Assembly (NCBI GenBank): GCA_052389415.1
Contig: JBQTHX010000084.1
Span: 1 to 13,092 of the forward strand
Length of the DNA stretch: 13,092 bases
Direction of reading: 5' to 3'
Source of the DNA: Nitrosopumilaceae archaeon
Lineage (GTDB): Archaea; Thermoproteota; Nitrososphaeria; Nitrososphaerales; Nitrosopumilaceae
The notes under the pieces were generated by a model. The model did no database searches, was not told the DNA's origin, and saw only the letters and a program-made list of their open reading frames with translations. This document shows, one piece after another, positions 1 through 13,092 of the stretch; positions within the stretch are counted from its first letter, which is position 1, and each line of letters opens with the position of its first letter. Position numbers and translations under genes: made by a program.

Positions 1-2
1 CG

Positions 3-1328
3 AAAGAATTAGAAGTAATAATAAAACGTGTTGTACGTGAAAAAGCAAAACAAAATTTATTTTTGATAAATCAAAGTGATTTGAAGAATTTTGTAGATTC
101 TGAAATTGACCAAAATATGGAGGACAAATATGAAATCTTGTCCGATCCAACAAAAAAGATCACTTCAGCTGAAGGGATTGAAGGTTTTGGCACTTTGTTT
201 GCCAGTAGATACTCGAAACTTTTAAAGATAATATCTCAGAGGGGCCAAGCACAAAAACTGGTAAAAATTGATGTAGTAAAGACAGGCAAGCCAAAAGACG
301 AAGTCTTCGTTGGTGGACTACTTATGGATAGGAAGATAGAACGAGATGTTACAAAATTGATAATAGATGATCCTAGCGGTTCTATTGAAACCCTAGTTTT
401 TAACAAAGAAATCCAACCAATAGCAAATTCACTTTTGATAGACCAATTTGTTATGCAAAGCATTACTAGTGGAAAAAATGGTGGTTTTATAACAAAAGAG
501 ATTCTTATTCCGGACCTCCCTGATCATGTGACAAATCGTTCAAAGACAGAAACCTATGCTGTCTTGATATCTGACTTGCATGTAGGTAGCAAGTATTTTA
601 TGGAAAAAGAGTTTGGAGATTTTGTTTCTTGGCTTGCTAGTCCTGATCCAATTGCAAAGAAAATTCGTTTTGTCCTAGTTTGTGGAGATGTAGTGGATGG
701 GGTTGGAATCTTTCCAAATCAAGACAAGGAGCTTCTTTTGGTGGACATTGGAGATCAGATGGTAAAAGCTGCTCAGTTACTTGATAAGATTCCAAAGCAT
801 ATCAAGGTCTTTATCATTCCAGGAAACCATGATCCTGGTAGGCGAGCCCTTCCACAACCTGCTATACCTGAAAAACACAATATGGATTTATGGAATAGAG
901 AGAATTTTTTCATGCTTGGTAATCCATCGGTAGTTTCGTTAAATGGTGTAAAGGTCTTGATGTTTCATGGGCAGAGTTTGGATGATGTTGTTGGAACCAC
1001 ACCAGGTCTTAGTTATTCCCAACCAGCAAAAGCAATGCGTATGCTGTTAAAAGCCAGACATCTAAGTCCGATTTATGGTAAAAGAACACCCATTGCTCCT
1101 GAAACGGAAGACATGATGGTAATTGATGAGATCCCTGACATCTTTCACTCTGGGCATATCCATGTTGTTGACCTAGACAAGTACAAGGGTACGTTAATAG
1201 TAAATTCCGGTGCTTGGCAAACTCAGACTGCATACCAAGCTAGTGTTGGAATAACACCAACTCCAGGGATTGCAGTTATTGTAAATCTAACCAATCTTAA
1301 GGTCTTTACCAAAAGTTTCGTAGATTAG
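3..1328 (+). CDS. polB: DNA polymerase D small subunit DP1 (3'-5' proofreading exonuclease), 5' partial
   Basis: Mre11-like phosphoesterase motifs SDLH, GDVVDG, GNHD, FHG and SGHIH, preceded by an OB-fold-like segment. The frame is open from position 3 (KELEVIIKRVVREKAKQNLFL...), so the true start lies upstream of the window and TTG at 63 is not the start. Confidence 0.95.
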   Translation, partial: KELEVIIKRVVREKAKQNLFLINQSDLKNFVDSEIDQNMEDKYEILSDPTKKITSAEGIEGFGTLFASRYSKLLKIISQRGQAQKLVKIDVVKTGKPKDEVFVGGLLMDRKIERDVTKLIIDDPSGSIETLVFNKEIQPIANSLLIDQFVMQSITSGKNGGFITKEILIPDLPDHVTNRSKTETYAVLISDLHVGSKYFMEKEFGDFVSWLASPDPIAKKIRFVLVCGDVVDGVGIFPNQDKELLLVDIGDQMVKAAQLLDKIPKHIKVFIIPGNHDPGRRALPQPAIPEKHNMDLWNRENFFMLGNPSVVSLNGVKVLMFHGQSLDDVVGTTPGLSYSQPAKAMRMLLKARHLSPIYGKRTPIAPETEDMMVIDEIPDIFHSGHIHVVDLDKYKGTLIVNSGAWQTQTAYQASVGITPTPGIAVIVNLTNLKVFTKSFVD

Positions 1329-2537
1329 CTACAAAACATCTGAAAAGATAAGATCGTCTTTGAGTGTTTTTTTTATAACATCAGGATGAATTGTCAATTT
1401 GTATTTTTTTGTCCTGCCGTGCATGCCTTGGTGAACTATCTTACCAGTGATAAGACCTGAGAGTTCAATATCACCGAGAATTTGAGTGACTCTCCGTTGT
1501 GTTATCTCTTTTTGACGTATCTTCTTACACAATCCTTTGTAGGCCTGATATATCTCGCCTGTGGAGGATCCGTTTGCTCTCATTACTGCGATAATTAGTA
1601 ATTTTTCATGTAATGGGTAAGAGTTTAGTGCTGTTGTTTCCTTATCCTCTTCCATCTTTTGAGAAGCTCGTCTGATATGGTCTTCTTTGACAGTTTTTGA
1701 TTGCTCTCTTTCAGCAAGCTCTCCTGCAACACGCAAGAGATCTATTGCTCTTCTTGCATCACCATGTTCTTGACCAGCCATTGCTGCACAGAGATTTAGT
1801 GCGGCAGTATCGACCGCGCCTTTGATAAAGGCTGTTTTGATTCTATCTAAGAGAATTTCCTTGATCTGCTCTACTGTATAATTTGTAAAGACAATCTCCT
1901 CTTCGCTAAGACTGCTCAAAACTCGGGGATCAAGTCTTTCTTTGAAGGTCAGATCGTTTGAAATTCCAATAAGTGTAAGGGAGCCTGACTTTAACCGTTC
2001 ATTTGCTCTCGTGAGGTTGTACAAAACATCCTTACCCGTTTTTGATATTAGTTCTGCCAAGTAATCAATCTCATCTATTACAAAAACTGCATTTGTAGTG
2101 TTTTTTTGAATAACTTCTAACAATTTGTTAAATACACTGCTAATTGATAATCCGGTTGCAGGAAGTTCTTTTTGGTTAAGGCCTAATTCCCTCCCCAAAC
2201 TTACTAGTAATCCATACAATGTTGTTTCGTCTTTGGCGTTTGTATAAGCCAGTTTAATCGGAAAATCACTCTTTTCAACACGTTTGTGTATTTTTGATAA
2301 GACAGTTTTTACTACCAATGTTTTGCCCGTACCGGGTTTGCCGTAAATAAGAAGATTTGATGGTCGTGATTTTTTTAAGATAGGTAGTAAAGCCTGGGTA
2401 ACTTTGGCAAGTTCGTTGTCCCTGTGTAAAATTATCTCTGGGATGAAGGTAAAATGCAATACATCACGTTTTTTTAAAATAGAAAGTCCGCTTGCTGCGT
2501 CATCAAGCAATTTATCTACGGGATCATGGTTGGTCAT
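1329..2537 (-). CDS. cdc6: Orc1/Cdc6 replication initiator (AAA+ ATPase with C-terminal winged helix)
   Basis: Walker A GKPGTGKT, Walker B VIDEID, GDARRA motif and a C-terminal wHTH. ATG at 2537 (MTNHDPVD) is preferred over GTG at 2546 because it is preceded by an SD-like AGGTG. Confidence 0.96.
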   Translation of the reverse strand: MTNHDPVDKLLDDAASGLSILKKRDVLHFTFIPEIILHRDNELAKVTQALLPILKKSRPSNLLIYGKPGTGKTLVVKTVLSKIHKRVEKSDFPIKLAYTNAKDETTLYGLLVSLGRELGLNQKELPATGLSISSVFNKLLEVIQKNTTNAVFVIDEIDYLAELISKTGKDVLYNLTRANERLKSGSLTLIGISNDLTFKERLDPRVLSSLSEEEIVFTNYTVEQIKEILLDRIKTAFIKGAVDTAALNLCAAMAGQEHGDARRAIDLLRVAGELAEREQSKTVKEDHIRRASQKMEEDKETTALNSYPLHEKLLIIAVMRANGSSTGEIYQAYKGLCKKIRQKEITQRRVTQILGDIELSGLITGKIVHQGMHGRTKKYKLTIHPDVIKKTLKDDLIFSDVL

Positions 2538-2540
2538 GGT

Positions 2541-2562
2541 ACACACCTATATTTCCTCTGTC
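2541..2562 (-). promoter_or_regulatory. ORB-like box a, overlapping the cdc6 leader and SD
   Basis: Minus strand reads GACAGAGGAAATATAGGTGTGT, matching the ORB pattern CAG(A/T)GGAAA-N4-G-rich. It ends 3 nt before the cdc6 ATG. Confidence 0.65.
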
Positions 2563-2610
2563 ATCATAATGAATCTACTTAGAATAAACTAATTAGAATA
2601 GAATCACTAA

Positions 2611-2670
2611 ACCAAATTTAGTATATCATTAATTATTTTTATTTTTATTTCAAAAAAATTTTTTAATAAA
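2611..2670. other. Extreme AT-rich tract (candidate DNA unwinding element)
   Basis: Only 5 G/C in 60 bp, and a single C in 2628-2670. Includes an A7T6 run at 2652-2664 and lies between ORB-like boxes a and b. Confidence 0.6.
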
Positions 2671-2671
2671 G

Positions 2672-2697
2672 CTAGAGTGGAAAACATGGTGTGTGGG
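2672..2697 (+). promoter_or_regulatory. ORB-like box b
   Basis: CTAGAGTGGAAAACATGGTGTGTGGG. Shares GAGTGGAAA with boxes c and d, and GGAAA-N4-GGTGTGT with box a. It is inverted relative to a, c and d. Confidence 0.72.
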
Positions 2698-2763
2698 CTC
2701 GTTTAAACTTAGTTAACTATTTGTTAAGTTCTTGTTAAGGTAAGACCAAAAAAAGCCAGATTT

Positions 2764-2793
2764 GACCCCTATATTTCCACTCCAGACGTGAAT
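2764..2793 (-). repeat. ORB box c (30-bp direct repeat, copy 1)
   Basis: Plus strand GACCCCTATATTTCCACTCCAGACGTGAAT; minus strand ...CTGGAGTGGAAATATAGGGGTC, with ORB core and G-string. Confidence 0.88.
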
Positions 2794-2825
2794 ATCAACC
2801 TTAACATTGTTAAAATGGTAGGAGG

Positions 2826-2855
2826 GACCCCCATATTTCCACTCCAGACGTGAAT
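2826..2855 (-). repeat. ORB box d (30-bp direct repeat, copy 2)
   Basis: Plus strand GACCCCCATATTTCCACTCCAGACGTGAAT. 29/30 identical to box c and starts 62 bp after it. Confidence 0.88.
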
Positions 2856-3006
2856 TATCTGTAAAGGGGATTAAAAGATGGATAGTGTTTGTTAAGGTGG
2901 TAATAATTTCTAGGCATGAGCCAGGCAGTGAATGTTAACAAACTCACTAGTTAACAAATCTTCTTTGATCTGTTCAAGTGTTAATGTGTTAACCGGATCG
3001 ATCACA

Positions 3007-3408
3007 ATGGCCAAAAAAAGAATCAAGATAGACCTAGAAGACACAGACGGAGCCAAGTACAACTTTAGTGTAGAAGGAAACGTAACTAGGGAAAAGATGT
3101 TAAAAATATTTGAAGTAATGGATTTGATAAACATAGAAGAACCTCAAGAAGGACCAACCTTAGATTCAGTAGGGTCTAAGATTTGGAATATTGTAGACAA
3201 ACACTTTCCAATGGGTAAGTTCACCTCATCTGAGGTGCTTGAGAAATATGAGGATGATTATGGGGAACCTATCAAACTAAGCATAATCTCAACATATTTG
3301 TCCAGATTTGCCTCTAAAGGCAGAGTGGAAAGAACAAAACAGGGAAGAGAGTGGGCCTATCAGGTAGTAAAGATCTCTCAAAGACAACCCAACTCCCTAA
3401 CAAAATAA
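3007..3408 (+). CDS. Hypothetical protein with small N-terminal domain and C-terminal winged helix-turn-helix (133 aa)
   Basis: C-terminus FTSSEVLEKY...LSIISTYLSRFASKGRVERTKQGREWAY has the helix-helix-wing pattern of wHTH proteins. ATG 3007 (MAKKRIK) is preferred because the upstream extension from 2932 runs through the origin motif cluster. Confidence 0.8.
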   Translation: MAKKRIKIDLEDTDGAKYNFSVEGNVTREKMLKIFEVMDLINIEEPQEGPTLDSVGSKIWNIVDKHFPMGKFTSSEVLEKYEDDYGEPIKLSIISTYLSRFASKGRVERTKQGREWAYQVVKISQRQPNSLTK

Positions 3409-3570
3409 TCACATTATCACTACTTTCTTTATTATGAGATGGTCTTGGTTCATTATGATTTTGACATAATCTCCTTTTTGAAGTTCAAGAAACTTTCTAA
3501 ACTGCTTTGGGATTGAGATTGTACCACCAGAGGTAATCTTTACCAACTCTTCATTCTGCTGAACAGTCAT
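3409..3570 (-). CDS. AbrB/MazE/SpoVT-family DNA-binding protein (53 aa; not in the ORF track)
   Basis: Manual translation gives MTVQQNEELVKITSGGTISIPKQFRKFLELQKGDYVKIIMNQDHLIIKKVVIM*, matching the family pattern K(I/V)xxxGxIxIPKxxRxxLxLxxGDxV. ATG at 3570, TGA at 3409-3411, and an AT-rich TATA-like segment about 25-30 nt upstream. Confidence 0.9.
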   Translation of the reverse strand: MTVQQNEELVKITSGGTISIPKQFRKFLELQKGDYVKIIMNQDHLIIKKVVIM

Positions 3571-3671
3571 ATTATTAAATAATTAGTTTATGTATTAAAT
3601 GTTTTATTATTTTATAAAATTCATAAATATACCATAAATTGATGAAATAGTGGATTTATTGGTATTGATTA

Positions 3672-4223
3672 TTATTGTGGAACTGGTTTTTCCAAACCAA
3701 GTTTGGCCTTACCCTTATCAGTAATGTTATAAGTAAATGGTTTGGTCCCCATATCTCTTTCAACTAAACCTTCCTCGAAAAGCTTCTTCATCATCCGTGA
3801 CGTATGCTCTCTGGTCCTACCTATTGTGATTTGTATATCACGTGATGTCATAGGTTTTTCTGTGATAAGCTTCAGAACATAATCTGTAGCACTACCAAAA
3901 TTCATGTTACGCATACGTTCTTTAGGTGGCTCTTCCTGAACCTGGCTCTCCTCTAACTGGACCTTAGTTGGTTTTTTATCATATTTTATTGGAACCTCCA
4001 ACATGCCTGTATCTTGGTCTAACTCTAGAGAATCCATTCGTATTTTCATATCAATTAACTGATTCTCATAATAATGGAGGCGGTCAGTATAGGATTTTAT
4101 TTGTTGAGATTCAGTCTTAATGAGTGGTTTGATCTTGTTGTATATCACTATGGCGAACAAACCACCAAGAAACGCGAGAGTGATTCCAATTAACACTTCT
4201 GGATCTGGAATCTCTACTAACAT
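3672..4223 (-). CDS. Membrane-anchored winged-helix protein (N-terminal TM helix, coiled-coil/linker, C-terminal MarR/ArsR-like wHTH; 183 aa)
   Basis: Hydrophobic VLIGITLAFLGGLFAIVIY followed by basic NKIK, then a heptad-like YTDRLHYYENQLIDMKIRMDSLEL and a Q/E/P-rich linker. The C-terminal VLKLITEKPMTSRDIQITIGRTREHTSRMMKKLFEEGLVER...FTYNITDKG is wHTH-like. ATG 4223 preferred over 4256. Confidence 0.82.
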   Translation of the reverse strand: MLVEIPDPEVLIGITLAFLGGLFAIVIYNKIKPLIKTESQQIKSYTDRLHYYENQLIDMKIRMDSLELDQDTGMLEVPIKYDKKPTKVQLEESQVQEEPPKERMRNMNFGSATDYVLKLITEKPMTSRDIQITIGRTREHTSRMMKKLFEEGLVERDMGTKPFTYNITDKGKAKLGLEKPVPQ

Positions 4224-4468
4224 CACAAAAACTCTGCAAAGTTCGTGATTTATCATGATCGAGCAACTTTATTTCACATAATACACATCAATCACAACAC
4301 ATTAAATATCATCGAGTTTGGTGACTATCAATTTAGATTGCTGTAATATCACAATCTACAGGCACGTTTTACCAATGTATCAATCACAGACATGATTTCA
4401 TTTTCTTTTTCAGGGAAGACATCACTGTTTTGTATCACAGATACTTGGTCCGAAAGCCTGCTTATCAC
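3826..4468. repeat. Dispersed ATCAC(A)/(T)GTGAT motif cluster
   Basis: 14 exact copies at 3826, 3837, 3842, 3862, 4144, 4180, 4222, 4245, 4291, 4348, 4383, 4421, 4434 and 4464. Both orientations occur, and the palindrome ATCACGTGAT sits at 3837-3846. Confidence 0.65.
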
Positions 4469-4711
4469 ATCAAGATCATCAGGGATGACTACTCCCAATC
4501 CCCTGAGGAGGATGATTGAATAAAACAATCCCAGAAGTTTATCCCTAGATTGAATAACCTGCCTGTAATAGGCCCCTTTTGTTATAGCAAAATCAATTTT
4601 CTGGAGGTTCAACTGATTTAAAATAATTTCAATTTGTCTTTCTGTAAATAATGATTTTTTTATAATTTGCTTGATAATATTATTAAAAATTGGATTTAGA
4701 GATTCGGCCAT
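4349..4711 (-). CDS. Hypothetical protein with HTH-like segment (120 aa)
   Basis: FTERQIEII...ITKGAYYRQVIQSRDKL resembles LuxR/sigma-region-4/Tfx-like HTH patterns (LTxRQxEIL...SxxAxxxxxxxAxxKL). The domain call is by eye only. Confidence 0.7.
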   Translation of the reverse strand: MAESLNPIFNNIIKQIIKKSLFTERQIEIILNQLNLQKIDFAITKGAYYRQVIQSRDKLLGLFYSIILLRGLGVVIPDDLDVISRLSDQVSVIQNSDVFPEKENEIMSVIDTLVKRACRL

Positions 4712-4744
4712 AGCTATACAATTCTGTATATCTTATCAGTGTTA

Positions 4745-4758
4745 AACTTTAAAAAGTT
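4745..4758 (+). promoter_or_regulatory. Candidate TATA box of the GGGPS-DP2 unit within a short inverted repeat
   Basis: AACTTT-AA-AAAGTT contains TTTAAAA about 21-28 nt upstream of ATG 4776, consistent with a leaderless archaeal promoter. It lies in a 64-bp divergent intergenic region. Confidence 0.45.
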
Positions 4759-4775
4759 CACTATTAACCTGTTTT

Positions 4776-5522
4776 ATGAAAAATGTGGAGAGTTATCTGA
4801 GGACGACTCTCAAGAAAAAGAAAGCTTTATTGTTTGTTCTCATAGATTCGGAAATATCTGAAATAAAATCAACTGTAAAGCTTGCAAAAGAAGTTGAGAA
4901 GATTGGCGCAGCAGCAATCCTAGTTGGAGGGTCATCTGCCACTGATCAGCTTGGCATGTCTGAGGTTGTTAGAAATTTAAAAAAATCAATCAAGATTCCA
5001 ATAATACTATTCCCTGGTAATATCACAGGTGTTGTCCCAAACGCTGACGCCATCTTATTTAGCTCTCTTTTGAATTCAGAGAATCCATATTACATCTCTC
5101 AGGCTCAAGCACTTGGAGCTCCAAACGTTCTAAAATTCGGGTTGGAACCTCTCCCTACTGCCTACATTGTGATAGGTGAAGGAACCTCGGCTTGGTTTGT
5201 AGGCTCAGTGAGAAGCATACCTTTTGACAAATCAAACCTTGCCGCAATGTACGCCCTTTCAGCACAATTCCTTGGCATGAGGTTTGTATACCTTGAGGCA
5301 GGCTCTGGCGCTTCTTCTCACGTTAAACCAGAGATGATACGGGCTGTACGTAAGGTATTCAAAGGCTTTTTGATCGTCGGCGGTGGAATCCGAGGCTCTC
5401 ATGCGGCAGGCGAGATTGTAAAGGCAGGTGCTGATGCCATCGTGATAGGTACCCTTGCAGAAAGAGGCGGAAGTAAAGTCTTAAACGAAATTATCAAAAC
5501 CATACAGAGTGTAAAGAAGTAA
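4776..5522 (+). CDS. Geranylgeranylglyceryl phosphate synthase (PcrB/GGGPS family; archaeal ether lipid synthesis)
   Basis: Family motifs VLID, ILVGGS, IILFPG, ADAILFSSLLNS, YLEAGSGA, VGGGIR and GADAIVIGT; size fits a TIM barrel (248 aa). Confidence 0.93.
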   Translation: MKNVESYLRTTLKKKKALLFVLIDSEISEIKSTVKLAKEVEKIGAAAILVGGSSATDQLGMSEVVRNLKKSIKIPIILFPGNITGVVPNADAILFSSLLNSENPYYISQAQALGAPNVLKFGLEPLPTAYIVIGEGTSAWFVGSVRSIPFDKSNLAAMYALSAQFLGMRFVYLEAGSGASSHVKPEMIRAVRKVFKGFLIVGGGIRGSHAAGEIVKAGADAIVIGTLAERGGSKVLNEIIKTIQSVKK

Positions 5523-5523
5523 C

Positions 5524-8500
5524 ATGTCTGAGAATGTGGTGTTGCGTTTAAGTGATATTGCAATGCCCAAATATTATGTAGATTATTATACAAACATCTC
5601 AAATACCGTCTTTTTAATATTTGAAAAGTCGGCAGCAGCAAAATCTACCTTACATGACTCATCAGTAATGGTAGAACCAAAGATTGCATTTGATCTTGCA
5701 GACCGAGTCTCAAAAATGCATGAGATAGACGTGACTGAGCGACTTAGAACACTGATACAAACTACTACAAAAGAGCTAGCAGCTTTAACACTAGCTGAGG
5801 AAATTGCCCGAGGCAAATACATTGGTTCAGATTCATTAGAAGAGAAATTAGACATGGCAGTAAGGGTCGCCCTTGCTATCGTTACTGAAGGTGTTACCAT
5901 AGCTCCGTTGCAAGGAATCCATGAGGTAAAAATCAAGAAGAATAGGGATGGTTCGGAATACCTCTCAATCTCCTTTGCTGGACCAATAAGGTCAGCTGGA
6001 GGAACAGAAGCTGCATCTACAATGCTAATTGCAGATCATGTTAGAAAGATAGCTGGTTTACAAAAATTTCAGGCAAACTCGTTTGATGATGAGACTGGAA
6101 GGTTTGTCGAAGAATTGAGACTTTACGAGAGAGAAGCTGGCAACTTTCAATACCACGTTCCAGATGAGGACATTGTTTCTGTAATATCAAATCTCCCGGT
6201 AGAACTAGATGGCGTTGACACTGATCCTATAGAAATTGTTAGTCATAGGAACATGGCCAGAATTTCTACTGATAGGGTAAGAGGAGGAGCCTTAAGAGTA
6301 CTAAATGATGGTTTGATTGGCAAATCCAGAAAATTGCTAAAACTAATTGATTTGTATAATTTAGAGGGCTGGGGCTGGCTAAAAGACCTCAAAGGAGCAA
6401 TCCAGACTGGTGATGAGGATGCGGCAGCACATAGGATGAGAGAGGTTATAACTGGAAGATCTGTACTTTCGATGCCAAAAAAACTAGGGGGGTTTAGACT
6501 AAGATATGGTCGAGCTTGCAACACTGGTTTTTCATCGGTAGGAGTTCATCCTGTTGTAGCTGAAATTCTAGATCATACTATAGCTGTAGGCACACAAATC
6601 AAACTAGATACTCCTGGCAAGGCTTCAACCATTGCTTTTGTAGATTCGCTTGACACTCCAATTATCAGATTGGTAAATGGAAATGTTGTTAAGCTACAAA
6701 ACACGGCCCATGGAATCAGCCTAAAAGGACAGATTGAAAAAATACTCCACCTTGGTGATATCCTGATCAGCTATGGAGATTTTTTGGAAAATAACGCGGA
6801 ACTAATTCCGACTGGATATGTGGAAGAATATTGGGTAGCGGAATTGGAAGAAAAACTCAGGAGATACGAATCAGAAGATAATCAATTACAGAGTTTTCTT
6901 TCAAAAACTCCTACATTTGATGAGGCAATCAAACTCTCATTAGATTTTGATATTCCACTTCATCCTAACTATCTTTACTTTTGGGAACAGCTATCACACG
7001 ACGAATTTAAGAAAATACTAGACCCCCAAAGTGCAGATCCTGAATCAATAACCTACCAAAAAAGTAGTAAACCCATTCTAGAAAAGCTTGGGGTTCCTCA
7101 TGAAGTTTCTGGGGAATTCGTTTTACTAAAATCTACAGAAGCTAGGATTTTCTTTAATCTGTTATTTAGAAACCCAATCAATTTTGATGATCTCCTTACT
7201 GTGACACAAATGATCACACAAGCAACCAAAATAAGAATTCATGAAAAATTTTCTACAGCAATTGGAGTCAGGGTTGGAAGACCAGAAAAAGCAGCTGAAA
7301 GGAAAATGAAACCACCAGTGCACACATTATTTCCTGTGGGAAATAAGGGAGGAGCATCACGTGACTTGATCAAAGCTTCCAAACAAGCCGACTTTTATTG
7401 TAATATTAGTAATAGGATATGTAAAAACTGTAAAGAACCCTCTATTGGAATAGCTTGCCAGAAATGCGGTTCCAAGACATCCATAATATTCATCTGTCCA
7501 AATTGCAGAGCAGAGCTTGATTCTGATTTTTGTGCTAAATGCAAGAGAAAAGGGAGTTTGCATGGCTACAAAGCATTTCCTCTCAAGGAGCAGCTTCTTC
7601 TATCTCAAGAAACTACTGCAATACGAGTTCAAGAGCCGTTTAAAGGAGTACGTGAACTCATTAACCAAGAAAGAATTGCAGAACCTCTTGAAAAGGGAAT
7701 CATTAGGCAAAGTCTTGGTCTTAGCGTATTCAAGGATGGTACAATTAGATTTGACGCAACAAATGCACCACTAACTCACTTTAAACCAAGATGGATTGGG
7801 ACCTCCCTTGAAAAACTTGCCAAGTTTGGATACACTCATGATATTGATGGTAAGCCACTCATTTCCTTGGATCAGACAATTGAGCTCTTAATGCAAGATG
7901 TAATCATTCCACATGATTGCGGAGAATATCTGGTCAAGACATCACAATATATTGATAAAGAATTGGAAAAGCTCTACGGTCACCCTGCCTTTTACAAAAT
8001 CAAAAACAACGATGATCTAGTTGGACACCTGATAATTGGTTTAGCTCCCCATACATCAGTTGGAATAGTAGGGCGAATAATAGGGTATACCAACACGCAT
8101 GTTTGTTATGGTACTCCGGTTTGGCATTCTGCAAAAAGACGTGATGCTGACGGTGATGCTGACTCTATCATGCTTTTGATGGATAGTCTTCTCAACTTTT
8201 CAAGACAGTTTCTTTCTGACAGAATAGGAGGATTAATGGATGCACCGCTATTGGTACAGCCCATAGTCATTCCACAAGAAGTTCAAAGACAGGCTCATAA
8301 TTTTGAAGTAGTAAAAGAATTACCACTCTCATTTTTTGAAGCCACCCTTGCAAAAGAAAAAGCAAGTGAGGTAAAAGGAGTTGAAACTCTAAAATCAAGA
8401 CTAGAAACCGAAAAACAGTTTTACGGACATTATTTCACACATAACACGTCAACTCTTACTACATCCAAATCGAGAAGCGCATATTCTACATTAGGTTCAC

Positions 8501-8895
8501 TTTTGGAAAAACTCGACATGCAAATTAGGACGGCTAATATCATAGATGCTATCGATCCAAATGAAGTAGTATCTATGGTAATGACAACTCATCTCTTGCC
8601 AGATATCATGGGTAATCTTAGAGCATATTCTGGACAATCATTTAGGTGTACTACATGTGGTGCAAGCTACAGAAGAATTCCATTATCACAAATTTGTAAT
8701 GAGTGTGGCAGCAAACTCATACAAACCATGACAAGACCTTCTGTGAAAAAATATCTAAAACTTGCAAAAAGGCTGCTTGGCAAATATCAAGTCGATCCAT
8801 ATTTGAGAGGACGAGTCCTTGGTTTGTTAGATGAACTTGAACTAGTTTTTGGAAAAGAGGAAAGCGACCAAGCTCTTCTTACTGATTATGCTTAA
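5524..8895 (+). CDS. polC: DNA polymerase D large subunit DP2
   Basis: Motifs TEGVTIAPLQGI, AGPIRSAGGT, GGFRLRYGR, RVGRPEKA, FKDGTIRFD, catalytic KRRDADGDAD and GGLMDAPL, multiple CxxC zinc sites, and a C-terminal PIP-like QALLTDY. No intein evident. Confidence 0.97.
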   Translation: MSENVVLRLSDIAMPKYYVDYYTNISNTVFLIFEKSAAAKSTLHDSSVMVEPKIAFDLADRVSKMHEIDVTERLRTLIQTTTKELAALTLAEEIARGKYIGSDSLEEKLDMAVRVALAIVTEGVTIAPLQGIHEVKIKKNRDGSEYLSISFAGPIRSAGGTEAASTMLIADHVRKIAGLQKFQANSFDDETGRFVEELRLYEREAGNFQYHVPDEDIVSVISNLPVELDGVDTDPIEIVSHRNMARISTDRVRGGALRVLNDGLIGKSRKLLKLIDLYNLEGWGWLKDLKGAIQTGDEDAAAHRMREVITGRSVLSMPKKLGGFRLRYGRACNTGFSSVGVHPVVAEILDHTIAVGTQIKLDTPGKASTIAFVDSLDTPIIRLVNGNVVKLQNTAHGISLKGQIEKILHLGDILISYGDFLENNAELIPTGYVEEYWVAELEEKLRRYESEDNQLQSFLSKTPTFDEAIKLSLDFDIPLHPNYLYFWEQLSHDEFKKILDPQSADPESITYQKSSKPILEKLGVPHEVSGEFVLLKSTEARIFFNLLFRNPINFDDLLTVTQMITQATKIRIHEKFSTAIGVRVGRPEKAAERKMKPPVHTLFPVGNKGGASRDLIKASKQADFYCNISNRICKNCKEPSIGIACQKCGSKTSIIFICPNCRAELDSDFCAKCKRKGSLHGYKAFPLKEQLLLSQETTAIRVQEPFKGVRELINQERIAEPLEKGIIRQSLGLSVFKDGTIRFDATNAPLTHFKPRWIGTSLEKLAKFGYTHDIDGKPLISLDQTIELLMQDVIIPHDCGEYLVKTSQYIDKELEKLYGHPAFYKIKNNDDLVGHLIIGLAPHTSVGIVGRIIGYTNTHVCYGTPVWHSAKRRDADGDADSIMLLMDSLLNFSRQFLSDRIGGLMDAPLLVQPIVIPQEVQRQAHNFEVVKELPLSFFEATLAKEKASEVKGVETLKSRLETEKQFYGHYFTHNTSTLTTSKSRSAYSTLGSLLEKLDMQIRTANIIDAIDPNEVVSMVMTTHLLPDIMGNLRAYSGQSFRCTTCGASYRRIPLSQICNECGSKLIQTMTRPSVKKYLKLAKRLLGKYQVDPYLRGRVLGLLDELELVFGKEESDQALLTDYA

Positions 8896-10214
8896 CGTAG
8901 TTTGATGTATTCGTAAGCTCCAGTCTTATTTTCAAAACAATAATGAACCTTTTGATAGTCTTTTCTAAATAACTTGACTTCGGATACAACCTTCTTTCTA
9001 TCTTTTTTATCTATTACCACCTTTTTGATAAATTCTGCAACCTGTTTCATCTCTGATTCTTTCATGCCAAGTCTAGTAAGCTCTGCAACTCCCAGTCTTA
9101 TGCCTCCTGGATGGAAGTAGTTCCTACCTGCCTTTATGTCTCCGGGAATAAGTTGTCTATTTACAATAATATTAGCCTTCTCAAGATCTGCCTCAATTAC
9201 ACCCCCATCTCCAAATGAAAGTACATTTAGCACAATTTGATGAGATTTGGTAAATCCTCTTTTTTCTCCTAAAACTCCAAAACCAAATGAATTTAGTGCT
9301 TGTGCTAATGCCTTTGCATTCTTTACTACTTGGCTTGCATACTTTTTGCCAAACTCGATCATTTCTGCAAATGCAATTGCCTTTCCTGCGACATGATGAA
9401 GATGATGATTGCTTGTCATACCTGGGAATGTAGCTTTTTTGATCTCATCAGCATACTTTTCAAAAGAGACGACCATTCCTCCCTGTGGGCCAAACAGAGT
9501 CTTATGAGTACTCATCGTCATTGCATCTGCTCCTTCTCTTAATGGATCCTGAAATTGGCCACCCGCAATTAATCCAGCAACATGCGCACCATCATAATTG
9601 ATAAACATCTTGTATCCCTTGAGAAAATCAGCAAGTTCTTTAACTGGATGGGGAAACAAAAACACCGAGCCACCAAACATAGCTAGCTTTGGTAACCTGC
9701 CAGCTTTTTCAAGCTCTACAACTTTTTGTTTTGTCTTATCCACATCAAGTGACATCTCTTCTGCATCAAACGGGTAAAATTCAATATCTAATCCATGCAC
9801 AAGGCCAGCAGTACCAGAGTGTTCCTTCTTGCCATGAGAAATATGGCCTCCAGATGGAATAGATGGAGCAAGCATGACATCTCCAGGATTTGTAAATGCG
9901 GAATAAATTGAAAGATTTGCTACAACTCCAGAAATTGGCCTTACATCTACAAACTGTGCCTTAAACAACTTCTTTGCAAGGTCTATACACTTGAATTCTA
10001 CCTTGTCGATAAACGTACAGCCGGCATAAACACGCTCACCTGGCCACCCTTCTGCATATCTATTTGCAAAATCCGAAATGGTCGCTTCCCTCACTGCCGG
10101 GCTAGGAATATTCTCACTTGCAATGAGAGGAATCGAATTTTCAAACCAATTATTGTGTTCCTTTAACATGGACAGAATCTCCTTGTAGGACTTTTTTGGT
10201 GAAGATCGCGCCAT
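8892..10214 (-). CDS. glyA: Serine hydroxymethyltransferase
   Basis: Motifs LIASEN, RYAEGWPGERVYAG, GGHISHG, YDGAHVAGLIAGG, the PLP-lysine motif STHKTLFGPQGG and GIRLG. Confidence 0.96.
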   Translation of the reverse strand: MARSSPKKSYKEILSMLKEHNNWFENSIPLIASENIPSPAVREATISDFANRYAEGWPGERVYAGCTFIDKVEFKCIDLAKKLFKAQFVDVRPISGVVANLSIYSAFTNPGDVMLAPSIPSGGHISHGKKEHSGTAGLVHGLDIEFYPFDAEEMSLDVDKTKQKVVELEKAGRLPKLAMFGGSVFLFPHPVKELADFLKGYKMFINYDGAHVAGLIAGGQFQDPLREGADAMTMSTHKTLFGPQGGMVVSFEKYADEIKKATFPGMTSNHHLHHVAGKAIAFAEMIEFGKKYASQVVKNAKALAQALNSFGFGVLGEKRGFTKSHQIVLNVLSFGDGGVIEADLEKANIIVNRQLIPGDIKAGRNYFHPGGIRLGVAELTRLGMKESEMKQVAEFIKKVVIDKKDRKKVVSEVKLFRKDYQKVHYCFENKTGAYEYIKLR

Positions 10215-10295
10215 GCCCAGTGGGTTAAATTATCCTAATTTAAAAACATCGAAACGAATTTTAGAAATTACACTAGTCACAAACAGATCTTAAGA

Positions 10296-10302
10296 TATAA
10301 AA
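10296..10302 (+). promoter_or_regulatory. Candidate TATA box for the thermosome gene
   Basis: TATAAAA 26-32 nt upstream of ATG 10328, in the divergent glyA/thermosome intergenic region. Confidence 0.5.
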
Positions 10303-10327
10303 AGGGAAAAAATCGCTCTAGTAAAAC

Positions 10328-12019
10328 ATGTCCATTCAAAGCACACAAGGTGGAATTCCTGTTGTCATCCTAAAAGAAGGAGCTCAACAGACCAAAGGTC
10401 GGGACGCTCAAAAAAACAACATTACAGCGGCAAAACTAATTGCTGAAATCATACACACCAGTCTTGGTCCAAGGGGTATGGACAAGATGCTTGTAGATTC
10501 GATAGGTGATGTTACGATTACTAATGACGGAGCTACCATTCTAAAAGAGATTGATGTTCAACATCCTGCTGCAAAAATGCTCGTGGAAATTTCTAAAACT
10601 ACAGATAATGAAGTAGGAGATGGAACCACATCAGCCGTAGTCCTTGCAGGAGCACTATTAGAAAATGCAGAATCTCTGATAAATCAGGATGTTCATCCCA
10701 CAATAATTGTCGATGGATATAGAAAAGCTGCACAAAAAGCAATTCAATTATTAGAAAAAATGGCAGACAGAGTACAACCCACTGATAAAGAAATTCTAAA
10801 CAAAATTGCCAAAACCTCGATGCAGACAAAGCTTGTAAGAAAAGATTCTAACTACCTGTCTGACATGATAGTTAAAGCTGTACTTGCAGTAGCAGAAAAA
10901 TCGGAAGATGATTACAAAGTTGATATTGACGATATTAAAGTGGAGAAAAAGGCTGGCGGTTCGATAAAAGATACTCTTCTCACAAAAGGGATTATTCTAG
11001 ATAAAGAAGTTGTTCATGCAGGAATGCCAAAAAAGATTTCCAATGCAAAAATTGCTTTAATCAACACTGCCTTAGAGATTGACAAGACGGAATTTGATGC
11101 GAAGATAAACATCTCAAGTCCTGATCAAATGAAATCATTCCTAGACGAAGAGAACAAAATGATCAAGACAATGGTTGACAAAGTTATCGCATCAGGAACA
11201 AATGTGTTGTTCTGTCAAAAAGGAATTGATGACATTGCGCAACACTATCTTGCAAAAGCAGGGGTGTTAACAGTTAGGCGAATAAAAGAAAGTGATCTTA
11301 CAAAGCTTGCAAAAGCGACCGATGCTAGAATTGTAACTAACCTTGATGATCTATCTGAAGATGATTTGGGCTCTGCAGAAAATGTTGAGGAAAGAAAAGT
11401 AGAGACAGACAAATGGGTTTTTGTAGAGGGCTGCAAGCGTCCAAAATCAGTGACTATTCTTGTACGTGGTGGCTCACAGAGAGTGGTTGACGAAGTTGAA
11501 AGATCTATTCACGACGCACTCATGGTTGTTAAAGATGTTATGGAAAAACCATTGATTGTAGCTGGAGGAGGCGCTCCAGAAACCTATGCAGCAACAAAGC
11601 TAAGAGAATGGGCAAAATCACTTGAGGGCAGAGAACAGCTAGCTGTTGAAAAATTTGCTGATTCACTTGAGGTGATTCCAATTACATTAGCAGAAAACGC
11701 TGGAATGGATCCAATTGATACTTTGACATCATTACGATCAAAACAGTTGAAGGGAAACAAGTGGACTGGTATCGATGTGATGAAAGGAGTAGTGGCAAGT
11801 ATGCATTCAACTGATATCTTTGAACCACTTTCTGTAAAGCTTCAGATAATATCTTCTGCTACTGAAGCAACATCCATGATTCTAAGAATTGATGATGTAA
11901 TCGCAGTTGCAAAATCAAGTGGTCCACCACCGGGTGCAGAAGGAATGGGAGGCATGGGCGGTATGGGTGGTATGCCTGGCATGGGTGGTATGGGCGGAAT
12001 GCCACCTATGGATATGTAA
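10328..12019 (+). CDS. ths: Thermosome subunit (group II chaperonin)
   Basis: Motifs [36 protein letters not shown] and ILRIDD, with a GGM-repeat C-terminal tail. Alpha versus beta is not resolved. Confidence 0.97.
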
Positions 12020-12076
12020 AAAGAAATTTTCAAATTTACCTACAAGATTTATTTGCGAATCATTCATACAAAATTC

Positions 12077-12361
12077 ATGCAAAAAAGCGGTATTATTCTT
12101 ACTGGAATAAAATTTGCATATCTTATAGTCTTCTTTGCACTACTCTCAGGAGTTTTTTATCTTATAATTGAACAACAAGCAGAAGCTTTTTCTGAGGTTG
12201 TGTATGGTGTGCTGATTCTTTTTGTTGGACTGGGGGGAGCCTTGTGTTTGTATAAAGCAAGTACCTCAGAGAAGAGACGAAAAATCTACATGATTGCAGG
12301 ATTTGCAATTCTTACTGTTGCACTCTTTCTAGTTTTCTCTATATCTGGAAGATTGATCTAG
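12077..12361 (+). CDS. Small hypothetical membrane protein (about 3 TM helices, 94 aa)
   Basis: Three hydrophobic stretches: FAYLIVFFALLSGVFYLII, VVYGVLILFVGLGGALCLY and IYMIAGFAILTVALFLVFSI. ATG 12077 is preferred over TTG 12053. Confidence 0.75.
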   Translation: MQKSGIILTGIKFAYLIVFFALLSGVFYLIIEQQAEAFSEVVYGVLILFVGLGGALCLYKASTSEKRRKIYMIAGFAILTVALFLVFSISGRLI

Positions 12362-13092
12362 ATATCAAAATATAGATAGAATTCGTGTGGGTGAGGTCGT
12401 ATTGAAACCTCTCTTTCATCTTTTCTTTCTAATTCAATTATCTTGTCAATTACCTCGTTTGTAAATATTGGATTTAGGAACTTTCGATCATTCTCAAGAG
12501 AATCTAGTGCTTCACCTAAAGTAGCAGGTAACGATTTGATCCCTTTCTTCTCTCTCTCTTCCTTACTCATCTTGTAAATGTCATCAAGCACTGGATCACC
12601 AGGTTCAATCTTTTTCTTTATTCCATCCAACCCTGCAGCAAGTACTGCAGCGAAAACGAGATAAGGATTAGATGAAGGGTCTGGTGCCCTAAACTCCAAT
12701 CGTTTTATCTTTGCATATCTTTCTCCTCTGAAATGAGCTGGAACTCTTACTATTGCTGATCTATTACTTGGACTCCAAGCGATGTAGACAGGAGCTTCAT
12801 AACCTGGAACAAGTCTGTGATATGAATTTGTAGTTGGTGCAACAATAGCAGCTAGTGCTCTTGCATGATTCATTATTCCACCGCAGAAATACCTTGCAGT
12901 TTGGCTTATTTCCTCTTTGTCGTCTTTATCAAAAAAGACATTCTTATCATCTTTCCAAAGGCTAACATTGGTATGCATTCCGGATCCTGAATCCATAGAA
13001 ATTGGTTTTGGCATCATAGTCGCTACCTTGCCAAACTTTTGGGCAACATTTCTTACAACATACTTGTATGTTTGTGCACCATCAGCAGCATT
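12358..13092 (-). CDS. glnA: Glutamine synthetase type I, C-terminal part (5' partial)
   Basis: Motifs ATMMPKP, SGSGMH, RLVPGYEAP, NRSAIVRVP and RLEFRAPDPSSNPYL. The frame stays open to the window edge (NAADGAQTYKYVVRNVAQKFGKVAT...). Confidence 0.96.
   Translation of the reverse strand, partial: NAADGAQTYKYVVRNVAQKFGKVATMMPKPISMDSGSGMHTNVSLWKDDKNVFFDKDDKEEISQTARYFCGGIMNHARALAAIVAPTTNSYHRLVPGYEAPVYIAWSPSNRSAIVRVPAHFRGERYAKIKRLEFRAPDPSSNPYLVFAAVLAAGLDGIKKKIEPGDPVLDDIYKMSKEEREKKGIKSLPATLGEALDSLENDRKFLNPIFTNEVIDKIIELERKDEREVSIRPHPHEFYLYFDI

Follow-up and report, generated by a model that had tools for sequence, protein, structure and literature searches.

The centromeres of plasmid R1 (parC, type II) and of the type Ib, ParG-type systems consist of about ten short repeats that share one orientation and surround the promoter of the binder operon, and a parC-type centromere doubles as an autoregulatory operator. 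Among archaea, autoregulated repressors of the MDR1, Lrs14 and Ss-LrpB type have operators that overlap the TATA box or the transcription start site (TSS); AspA (Sulfolobus pNOB8) starts at one palindrome, spreads from there and acts together with ParB and ParA, and SegB works with the SegA ATPase. RacA/ram and Noc/NBS represent membrane-connected, site-specific binders on origin-proximal DNA. Nitrososphaeria (Thaumarchaeota) are abundant nitrifiers that are genetically hard to manipulate; we know of no account of how their single origin is organized, segregated or licensed, nor of any segregation machinery in the class. Here we analysed a 13,092-nucleotide stretch of a Nitrosopumilaceae archaeon genome (GenBank assembly GCA_052389415.1, contig JBQTHX010000084.1, positions 1–13,092; 'the window'), in which a dense array of the box GTGAT (ATCAC on the other strand) lies near the likely replication origin (oriC). 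The array is written over two genes, one encoding a 183-amino-acid winged helix–turn–helix (wHTH) protein with a predicted membrane anchor and the other a 120-amino-acid protein (p120).

The array holds 14 exact ATCAC/GTGAT copies between positions 3826 and 4468, nine on the forward strand and five on the reverse strand (Table 1). Eight copies extend to ATCACA and three to ATCACAGA, two opposed copies form the palindrome ATCACGTGAT, five direct GTGAT boxes of the p120 3′ end span 4348–4468 on the reverse strand, and the array ends abruptly, with the next copy at 5022. A sequence-only reading of the window had listed most of these features, and our recount bears it out, including the frames that the boxes occupy (Val-Ile, Ile-Thr, Ser-Asp, a stop codon and a start codon), the expectation of one or two copies (1.41 per 643 bp at the genome-wide rate) and the sparseness of the remaining window (32 copies in about 12.4 kb, or roughly one per 390 bp, against an estimate of one per 400–500 bp). 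The genome-wide density check that it proposed identified the 14-copy window as the maximum for this 5-mer across the 1.43-Mb assembly (94 contigs, 36% G+C), in which the core occurs 3133 times. The second-densest window (11 copies; contig C18, ~70.2–70.7 kb) falls in a tandem thrombospondin-type-3-like coding repeat, and no other cluster in the genome is comparable to the array. The motif had been picked after the sequence was viewed; as a post-hoc control, the most extreme 643-bp cluster of each of the 512 canonical 5-mers was scored. ATCAC ranked 24th by Poisson extremity, and the 5-mers above it trace back to some nine loci, the majority of them tandem repeats; the neighbouring GTTAA cluster at oriC is among these loci. 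Codon shuffling within this one genome was only moderately convincing. With codon-preserving shuffling, the null against which the sequence-only reading had wanted the density compared, the excess stood for the two coding sequences jointly (10 boxes wholly within coding sequence against a mean of 4.7; 32/10,000 shuffles reach 10) but not for the p120 gene alone (4 boxes against 2.5; 1802/10,000, not significant). Shuffling with genome codon usage gave a mean of 3.1 against the 10 boxes, which 6/10,000 shuffles reach.

Orthologues keep the boxes at synonymous sites, even across amino-acid changes, as expected from the earlier proposal that selection acts at the DNA level. At the three Val-Ile boxes of 53 p120 orthologues, the Val codon is GTG in 149/153 cases, compared with 54/307 for the other Val codons of the same orthologues (GTG makes up 12.6% of Val codons in the genome of the window). 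The Ser/Gly-Asp box is written AGT (48) or GGT (4), followed by GAT in 51/53, and the codon preceding the third Val-Ile box encodes many residues and mostly ends in T. The final sense codon varies between Leu, Val and Met, yet is NTG in 50/53 orthologues, and the stop is TGA in 50/53 (26% of stops genome-wide), so that GTGAT is rebuilt across the stop. Among degenerate, well-conserved columns, the top codon has a share of 0.96 at the 7 that fall in boxes, compared with 0.70 at the 63 others. The wHTH gene was counted in 54 genes (2 of the 56 assembled were dropped for want of an alignment anchor). Ile of the Leu-Ile-Thr box is ATC in 53/53; the Thr-Ser-Arg-Asp box reads AC(A/G) TCA CGT GA(C/T), with TCA in 54/54 and CGT in 54/54; and at the second Ile-Thr box Ile is ATC in 31/31, while Val replacing Ile is GTC in 20/20, which keeps TCAC. 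Elsewhere in the same wHTH genes, Ile is ATC in 134/860 and Arg is CGT in 92/599. The sequence-only reading had named kept amino acids with synonymous loss of the motif as the observation that would speak against it; the orthologues show the opposite, and these counts strongly support the view that the boxes are kept in place by selection on the DNA itself. As a putative natural DNA-binding array overprinted on coding sequence, with rare synonymous codons fixed in at least 50 species, the locus offers a benchmark for dual-coding constraint.

The geometry of the array is fixed as well. Relatives within the genus and the family (38–79% wHTH identity) carry boxes at matching relative positions and in matching orientations. 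Public species representatives supplied 49 Nitrosopumilaceae loci, of which we analysed 48 after dropping one truncated locus. The 266 bp ending at the wHTH start codon hold a mean of 8.7 boxes (minimum 7) at fixed positions, and the 91-bp HTH-coding stretch a mean of 2.75, compared with 0.50 boxes per 266 bp in the remaining flanks. Family-wide boxes account for 12 of the 14 in the window; those at 4144 and 4180 are found in only some orthologues and differ in orientation. The pattern GTGAT-N25-GTGAT-N8-GTGAT occurs in 92/151 family genomes sampled (90/149 without the unpublished genomes G172 and G173), nearly always once per genome, against a single match of the reversed control pattern across all 151; no match was found in 7 of the 27 genera sampled. 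A logo pooled from 772 sites at 65 loci contains the short core GTGAT only, preceded by T in 60% and by G in 3% of sites and never followed by C, and box flanks in this logo hold no further information. Start-to-start spacings are irregular (30, 13, 38, 35, 42/58, 46 and 23 bp). A helically phased array, with all boxes on the same face, was considered and dropped, as these spacings do not fit multiples of 10.5.

At every level from the family to the class, the motif accompanies the start of the regulator gene. Distant lineages have one to four boxes at the start of the wHTH gene: in 14 of the 19 distant loci displayed, a same-orientation GTGAT precedes the first in-frame ATG by no more than 20 nt (start codons were assigned mechanically), often directly after a TTTAAAT- or TATATAA-like element. 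In Nitrosopumilaceae, 8–13 same-orientation boxes run upstream for ~250 bp and enter the preceding gene, and 3–4 inverted boxes lie ~360–420 bp downstream, within the wHTH gene. A small operator with one to four boxes seems to be the ancestral state, which Nitrosopumilaceae expanded.

Alignment of the intergenic region at 13 loci revealed GTGATG to be invariant at the wHTH gene start and a conserved block, TGTGATTGATGTGTA..TGTGAAA, around −72. The element ATGATAAATCAC probably combines a TATA-like element with the inverted box, which abuts the invariant ATGATAAAT, and the direct box sits on the ATG; both the TATA box and the TSS are placed by position. The wHTH transcript is probably leaderless, to judge from this arrangement, with its start covered by a box, and some boxes occupy the interval from the TATA-like element to the ATG, in probably untranscribed DNA. 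The start codon at 4223 given in the sequence-only reading holds and is conserved in orthologues: the ATG at 4256 that ORF finders choose is not conserved, and orthologue alignments show it to be absent or stop-interrupted in many relatives. The paired geometry ATCAC-N18-GTGAT has two matches genome-wide (this locus and one other), which is about chance level, and a regulon search by this geometry was rejected, having returned no more matches than chance predicts.

The wHTH protein has a hydrophobic helix at residues 10–28 (Kyte–Doolittle 19-residue maximum of 2.5), preceded by an acidic N-terminus of 9 residues and followed by a Lys-rich stretch; by the positive-inside rule, the remainder of the protein would be cytoplasmic. 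The AlphaFold2 (AF2) model comprises a helix at 8–71 that includes the membrane segment and a coil (pLDDT ~90), a disordered stretch at 72–102 and a wHTH domain at 109–175 (helix–helix–helix–strand–strand; pLDDT ~87). HTH_27 passes its Pfam gathering cut-off (24.7 bits against 22.2), and TrmB (23.3 against 25.6), MarR (19.7 against 24.6) and HTH_Crp_2 (21.5 against 27) stay below theirs, so we treat the domain as a generic wHTH and not as an assigned MarR or TrmB member. The three sub-threshold matches recur in 30–31 of 31 members (HTH_Crp_2 in 30/31, best E value 1.1e-4). The top Foldseek matches are MarR-family repressor chains (E ~1e-3; root-mean-square deviation 1.4–2.5 Å over 65–72 columns), making MarR-type DNA-binding dimers the closest solved folds; the AspA–DNA structure (5k5q), of an archaeal centromere-binding protein, came 45th, as a generic wHTH match only. 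A sequence search of the domain against PDB chains gave only generic wHTH matches, including Z-alpha domains, that are not significant (E 0.5–1.3), and NCBIfam gave weak matches to Lrs14 and Sta1. Databases label the protein 'winged helix DNA-binding protein' or 'predicted transcriptional regulator'. Its recognition helix, (S/T)REH(T/V/I)(A/S)R, shows class-wide conservation.

For p120 we found 2881 homologues, and the named ones among the matches listed are all 'hypothetical', come from Nitrososphaerota and lack a Pfam domain. It has no Pfam domain and no meaningful NCBIfam match, and its AF2 model is all-helical and poor (pLDDT 60). The ESM Atlas returned its own clusters and a weak Sigma70_r4-like HTH lead for the N-terminal part (rank 24, 0.81). 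A predicted complex of the wHTH protein with p120 scored 0.00, which is uninformative either way. The p120 start codon differs by lineage (ATG or TTG/CTG), and the 12 nt preceding it (in-frame ..CIA) are kept across relatives; the divergent starts of p120 and of the GGGP synthase gene are only 64 bp apart (4712–4775).

A profile of the wHTH protein matched 63/81 sampled genomes of the class (45/51 of those of high quality), with full-length matches in several families; in a phylum-level search, most matches outside the class span the wHTH domain only. A p120 homologue stands immediately upstream of the wHTH gene in 25/31 distant loci. Across most of the class, the gene pair lies 1–2 kb from cdc6/oriC. 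Orc1/Cdc6 is encoded no more than ~2.2 kb from the wHTH gene in 8/10 complete genomes and 8 kb away in one, and one complete genome (a single contig) has the wHTH gene and cdc6 at opposite contig ends; within fetched flanks, cdc6 was present at 7/9 order-level and 15/19 class-level loci. The proximity to oriC noted in the sequence-only reading is hence both real and conserved. In the window, the array is 1.2–1.8 kb from the AT-rich stretch of the origin.

On balance, the probable explanation is that the boxes, with the core (T)GTGAT, form a protein-binding array on duplex DNA and that the binder is the wHTH protein encoded there, possibly with p120 taking part alongside it. We favour this protein because the boxes occur in both orientations and in part in probably untranscribed DNA, the genome has no second array of this kind, and array and recognition helix persist together. 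Given that no comparable cluster exists elsewhere in the genome, the protein's own locus would be its main target. Two boxes bracket the presumed core promoter, one inverted at the TATA-like element and one direct on the start codon, and their occupancy would block TBP/TFB or RNA polymerase, resulting in autoregulation (autorepression). A parallel coiled-coil dimer or oligomer carrying wHTH domains on flexible linkers of ~30 residues could tolerate the irregular box spacing and might bridge the upstream direct and downstream inverted boxes, forming a loop that encloses the promoter. In this scheme an autoregulatory operator would have grown into a multi-site nucleoprotein array for a membrane-anchored wHTH protein, and the complex would be held at the membrane, 1.2–1.8 kb from the origin.

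Several points weigh against the wHTH protein as an autoregulatory binder. The 5-bp core is short, and single sites among its 3133 genomic occurrences may also be targets. Because p120 accompanies the wHTH gene in 25/31 distant loci, co-occurrence cannot tell whether one of the two or a third protein is the binder. At least 12 boxes over 640 bp, some of them deep in a gene, exceed what simple autoregulation needs. The counts across relatives lack phylogenetic independence, for which the other codons of the same genes provide a partial control. The TATA box and the leaderless start are assigned from position only, and binding of the boxes by the wHTH protein is likewise deduced from sequence.

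A structural role may instead be primary, the site being centromere-like or origin-tethering and autoregulation a by-product, as in plasmid parC/ParR. We regard this as unlikely and yet a serious possibility, because the proposed complex would be held at the membrane near the origin and a regulator that targets mainly itself needs a further purpose. A tether of this kind would fix origin-proximal DNA to the membrane and thereby segregate or sequester newly replicated origins. It would account for the proximity to cdc6 (8/10 complete genomes; 15/19 class-level and 7/9 order-level loci), for a membrane helix that leaves the protein hardly any extracellular portion, and so makes it no obvious sensor, and for an array that is genome-unique and larger than an operator requires. 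However, the boxes of distant lineages, only one to four at the gene start, are operator-like, and the adjacent genes encode GGGP synthase and PolD and not a partition NTPase: no ParM, ParA or SegA was found among the neighbours inspected (PcrB/GGGP synthase, PolD DP2, the AbrB/MazE-like protein, the small wHTH protein and Orc1/Cdc6; an orphan ParA elsewhere in the genome was not searched for). A doubtful extension of this view is a dedicated origin-anchoring module of the class Nitrososphaeria, to which the ammonia-oxidizing archaea belong, in which the membrane coiled-coil wHTH protein and p120, seated on the GTGAT array, would tether the newly replicated origin region as a centromere or origin-sequestration device. 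Such a module, if real, would mean that the array is important enough to be written over two protein-coding sequences, and membrane tethering would make it the first origin-anchoring system described in archaea. The locus provides a concrete cis-element and two-gene module, class-conserved beside cdc6/oriC, whose annotation goes no further than 'winged helix DNA-binding protein' and 'hypothetical protein'.

It is improbable that another binder (p120 alone, Orc1/Cdc6 or a chromatin protein) uses the array in an auxiliary role at the origin, such as the titration of initiator or the loading of helicase. The conservation of the array beside oriC fits such a role, as does p120, whose conservation is almost as wide as that of the wHTH gene and which gives the weak Sigma70_r4-like HTH lead in its N-terminal part; p120 nevertheless has a poor model (pLDDT 60) and lacks a Pfam domain. 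Origin motifs bound by non-initiator proteins do exist, as with ucm and UBP in Sulfolobus, according to a recent report (PMC12141716). The ORB-like repeats at oriC are a different sequence in which the GTGAT/ATCAC box is absent, and the oriC intergenic region (2547–2931) contains only one ATCAC. The boxes always follow the wHTH promoter and not the ORBs, which argues against such an auxiliary role.

Constraint at the RNA level, with GUGAU/AUCAC serving as protein- or small-RNA-binding motifs or as pairing partners in the p120–wHTH transcript, is very improbable. In its favour, 8/9 upstream boxes are sense-oriented, the downstream boxes are their complement, and pairing of ATCACAGA with TCTGTGAT would be possible along 8 nt. 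Against these stand an unremarkable fold of 4190–4480 (z-score −1.08; 19/200 shuffles fold at least equally well), the lack of any Rfam covariance-model match at E values up to 1 in 2400–4900, box flanks without a conserved extension, and the distant lineages, whose conserved box falls after the TATA-like element and before the ATG, in DNA with little or no transcription. It is scarcely conceivable that chance, codon bias or constraint on the proteins alone explains the boxes: although the motif is short and was selected after viewing, p120 by itself is not significant in the single-genome shuffle and the encoded peptides (DVI, SVI, LIT and TSRD) are themselves conserved, the orthologue codon counts contradict it, with rare synonymous codons fixed at boxes in genes whose remaining codons are free to vary, boxes outlasting amino-acid changes (Ser to Gly; Leu/Val/Met before the stop; Ile to Val with TCAC kept) and intergenic boxes conserved too.

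Table 1 Features of the window. Box names give the position counted from the A of the ATG at 4223; '>' denotes GTGAT and '<' ATCAC on the coding (−) strand. For boxes, the strand column gives the strand that reads ATCAC.
Feature	Position	Strand	Remarks
PolD small subunit	3–1328	+	
Orc1/Cdc6 (orc1/cdc6)	1329–2546	−	
oriC core, likely	2542–2855		Three origin recognition box (ORB)-like 30-nt repeats and an AT-rich stretch, beside orc1/cdc6
ORB-like 30-nt repeats, GACCCCTATATTTCCACTCCAGACGTGAAT type	2542–2571, 2764–2793, 2826–2855		97% and 60% copies
AT-rich stretch	~2620–2670		Flanked by ORB-like repeats
Partial inverted GTGGAAA	~2678		oriC core
Small wHTH gene (158-amino-acid ORF)	2932–3408		
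SpoVT/AbrB–MazE-type DNA-binding protein (53 amino acids)	3409–3570	−	Between both wHTH genes
Transmembrane, coiled-coil wHTH protein (183 amino acids)	3672–4223	−	Start ATG 4223 (MLVEIPD...)
Box +393<	3826–3830	−	HTH-coding part, Ile-Thr
Boxes +377< / +382>	3837–3846	− (from 3842) / + (from 3837)	Palindrome, HTH-coding part, Thr-Ser-Arg-Asp
Box +357<	3862–3866	−	HTH-coding part, Ile-Thr
Box +75>	4144–4148	+	Membrane-helix coding part of wHTH gene; lineage-variable
Box +39<	4180–4184	−	Membrane-helix coding part of wHTH gene; lineage-variable
Box −3>	4222–4226	+	On start codon (GTGATG), 23 bp from inverted box
Intergenic promoter region of wHTH gene	4224–4348	−	
ATGATAAATCAC	4245–4256	−	Putative TATA-like element, then inverted box at once; invariant or nearly so; ~27 nt upstream of ATG
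Box −26<	4245–4249	−	Abuts TATA-like element
Box −72>	4291–4295	+	Intergenic, in conserved TGTGATTGATGTGTA..TGTGAAA block
Box −129>	4348–4352	+	p120 final sense codon and TGA stop
p120, all-helical protein (120 amino acids)	4349–4711	−	Directly upstream of wHTH gene, same strand
Box −164>	4383–4387	+	p120 3′ end
Box −202>	4421–4425	+	p120 3′ end
Box −215>	4434–4438	+	p120 3′ end
Box −245>	4464–4468	+	p120 3′ end
GGGP synthase (PcrB), PolD large subunit (DP2), SHMT, thermosome, glutamine synthetase			Further window genes past p120

A second box array lies at oriC, where 15 GTTAA/TTAAC copies per 643 bp from 2712 constitute the genome maximum for that 5-mer. The copies, many of them in the form TGTTAA or GTTAAC, fill the stretch from the ORB-like repeats to the small wHTH gene, and the array recurs in 14/14 relatives checked, with 9–15 copies per 350 bp in the same place, beside TTTCCAC repeats. 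Probably a different protein binds this array, and the adjacent CopY/Penicillinase_R-like wHTH protein may be the one. The 158-amino-acid ORF of that protein has a weak Penicillinase_R/CopY-type wHTH match; its first 25 codons overlap GTTAA boxes and are non-coding in appearance, and its true start is probably the ATG at 3007 (MAKKRIKIDLE...). At the stop of this gene, 400 bp outside the GTGAT array, two more ATCAC copies stand 8 bp apart (ATCACATTATCAC; 3408–3420) and have no counterpart at the matching place in the relatives listed. The adjoining 53-amino-acid AbrB/MazE-type protein scores 32 bits against PF04014 (cut-off 24.7), and no toxin partner is visible beside its gene. Elsewhere in the genome, contig C18 (~69.9–70.9 kb) encodes a long thrombospondin-type-3-like calcium-binding repeat protein (DNCP..N.DQ.D.D.DG.GD.CD) that is the source of several 5-mer clusters, and the strongest 5-mer clustering occurs at ~2.6–3.3 kb of contig C63 (GGACC with 25 copies per 643 bp, alongside numerous related words), presumably a tandem repeat.

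A full-text search, in which subscription journals are thinly covered, found no published description of the motif, the array or the protein pair; the feature is real, strongly conserved and, it appears, undescribed. Its extended box resembles a bacterial operator half-site. The CRP/FNR half-site is TGTGA, CRP sites are palindromes with a 6-bp spacing, and the CRP recognition helix has the form R-E-x-x-x-R. The extended box TGTGAT matches this half-site and the wHTH recognition helix also reads R-E-x-x-x-R, whereas the wHTH protein lacks a cyclic-nucleotide-binding domain and its boxes are mostly direct repeats. In common with the operators of archaeal autoregulated repressors, boxes lie just downstream of the putative TATA-like element and on the presumed start of the candidate regulator's own gene; unlike those operators, there are 12–14 boxes over 640 bp, inside two coding sequences, together with a membrane anchor, a coiled coil and class-wide linkage to oriC. 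The proposed system shares with AspA and SegB an archaeal site-specific binder, here of the wHTH type, that would build a higher-order complex near its own gene, but no ParA-, ParB- or SegA-type partner gene lies beside the array.

At Sulfolobales origins, ucm is a short conserved non-ORB motif bound by the non-initiator UBP; according to the report cited above, ucm is single-copy inside the DNA unwinding element (DUE), UBP has hundreds of genomic sites, and analogous origin proteins in other archaeal lineages are considered worth finding (PMC12141716). The GTGAT array, by contrast, is genome-unique and 1.2–1.8 kb from the AT-rich stretch. RicO of S. aureus is presented as a bacterial origin–membrane anchor in a preprint (10.64898/2026.03.06.710092). 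RacA, Noc and RicO are unrelated to the wHTH protein, for which tethering is a hypothesis, and their sites extend over tens to hundreds of kilobases, in contrast to the compact array over the gene of its own candidate binder.

The likeness to parC or ram sites suggested in the sequence-only reading survives in part: an array does surround the promoter of a DNA-binding protein gene, but the spacing is irregular and the adjacent partition NTPase is missing. As in parC-type systems, the boxes gather at the promoter of the gene for the putative binder, with 8–9 boxes in the 266 bp plus the start codon, an arrangement that 48/48 further loci keep (minimum 7). The array differs in being chromosomal and in consisting of irregular 5–7-bp boxes, mostly overprinted on coding sequence, where parC has 11-bp phased iterons, and its candidate binder is a membrane-anchored wHTH protein and not a ribbon–helix–helix protein. 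Taken together, the locus is an operator- or centromere-style array that is here chromosomal and origin-adjacent, is written over two genes and has a membrane-anchored candidate binder as its partner.

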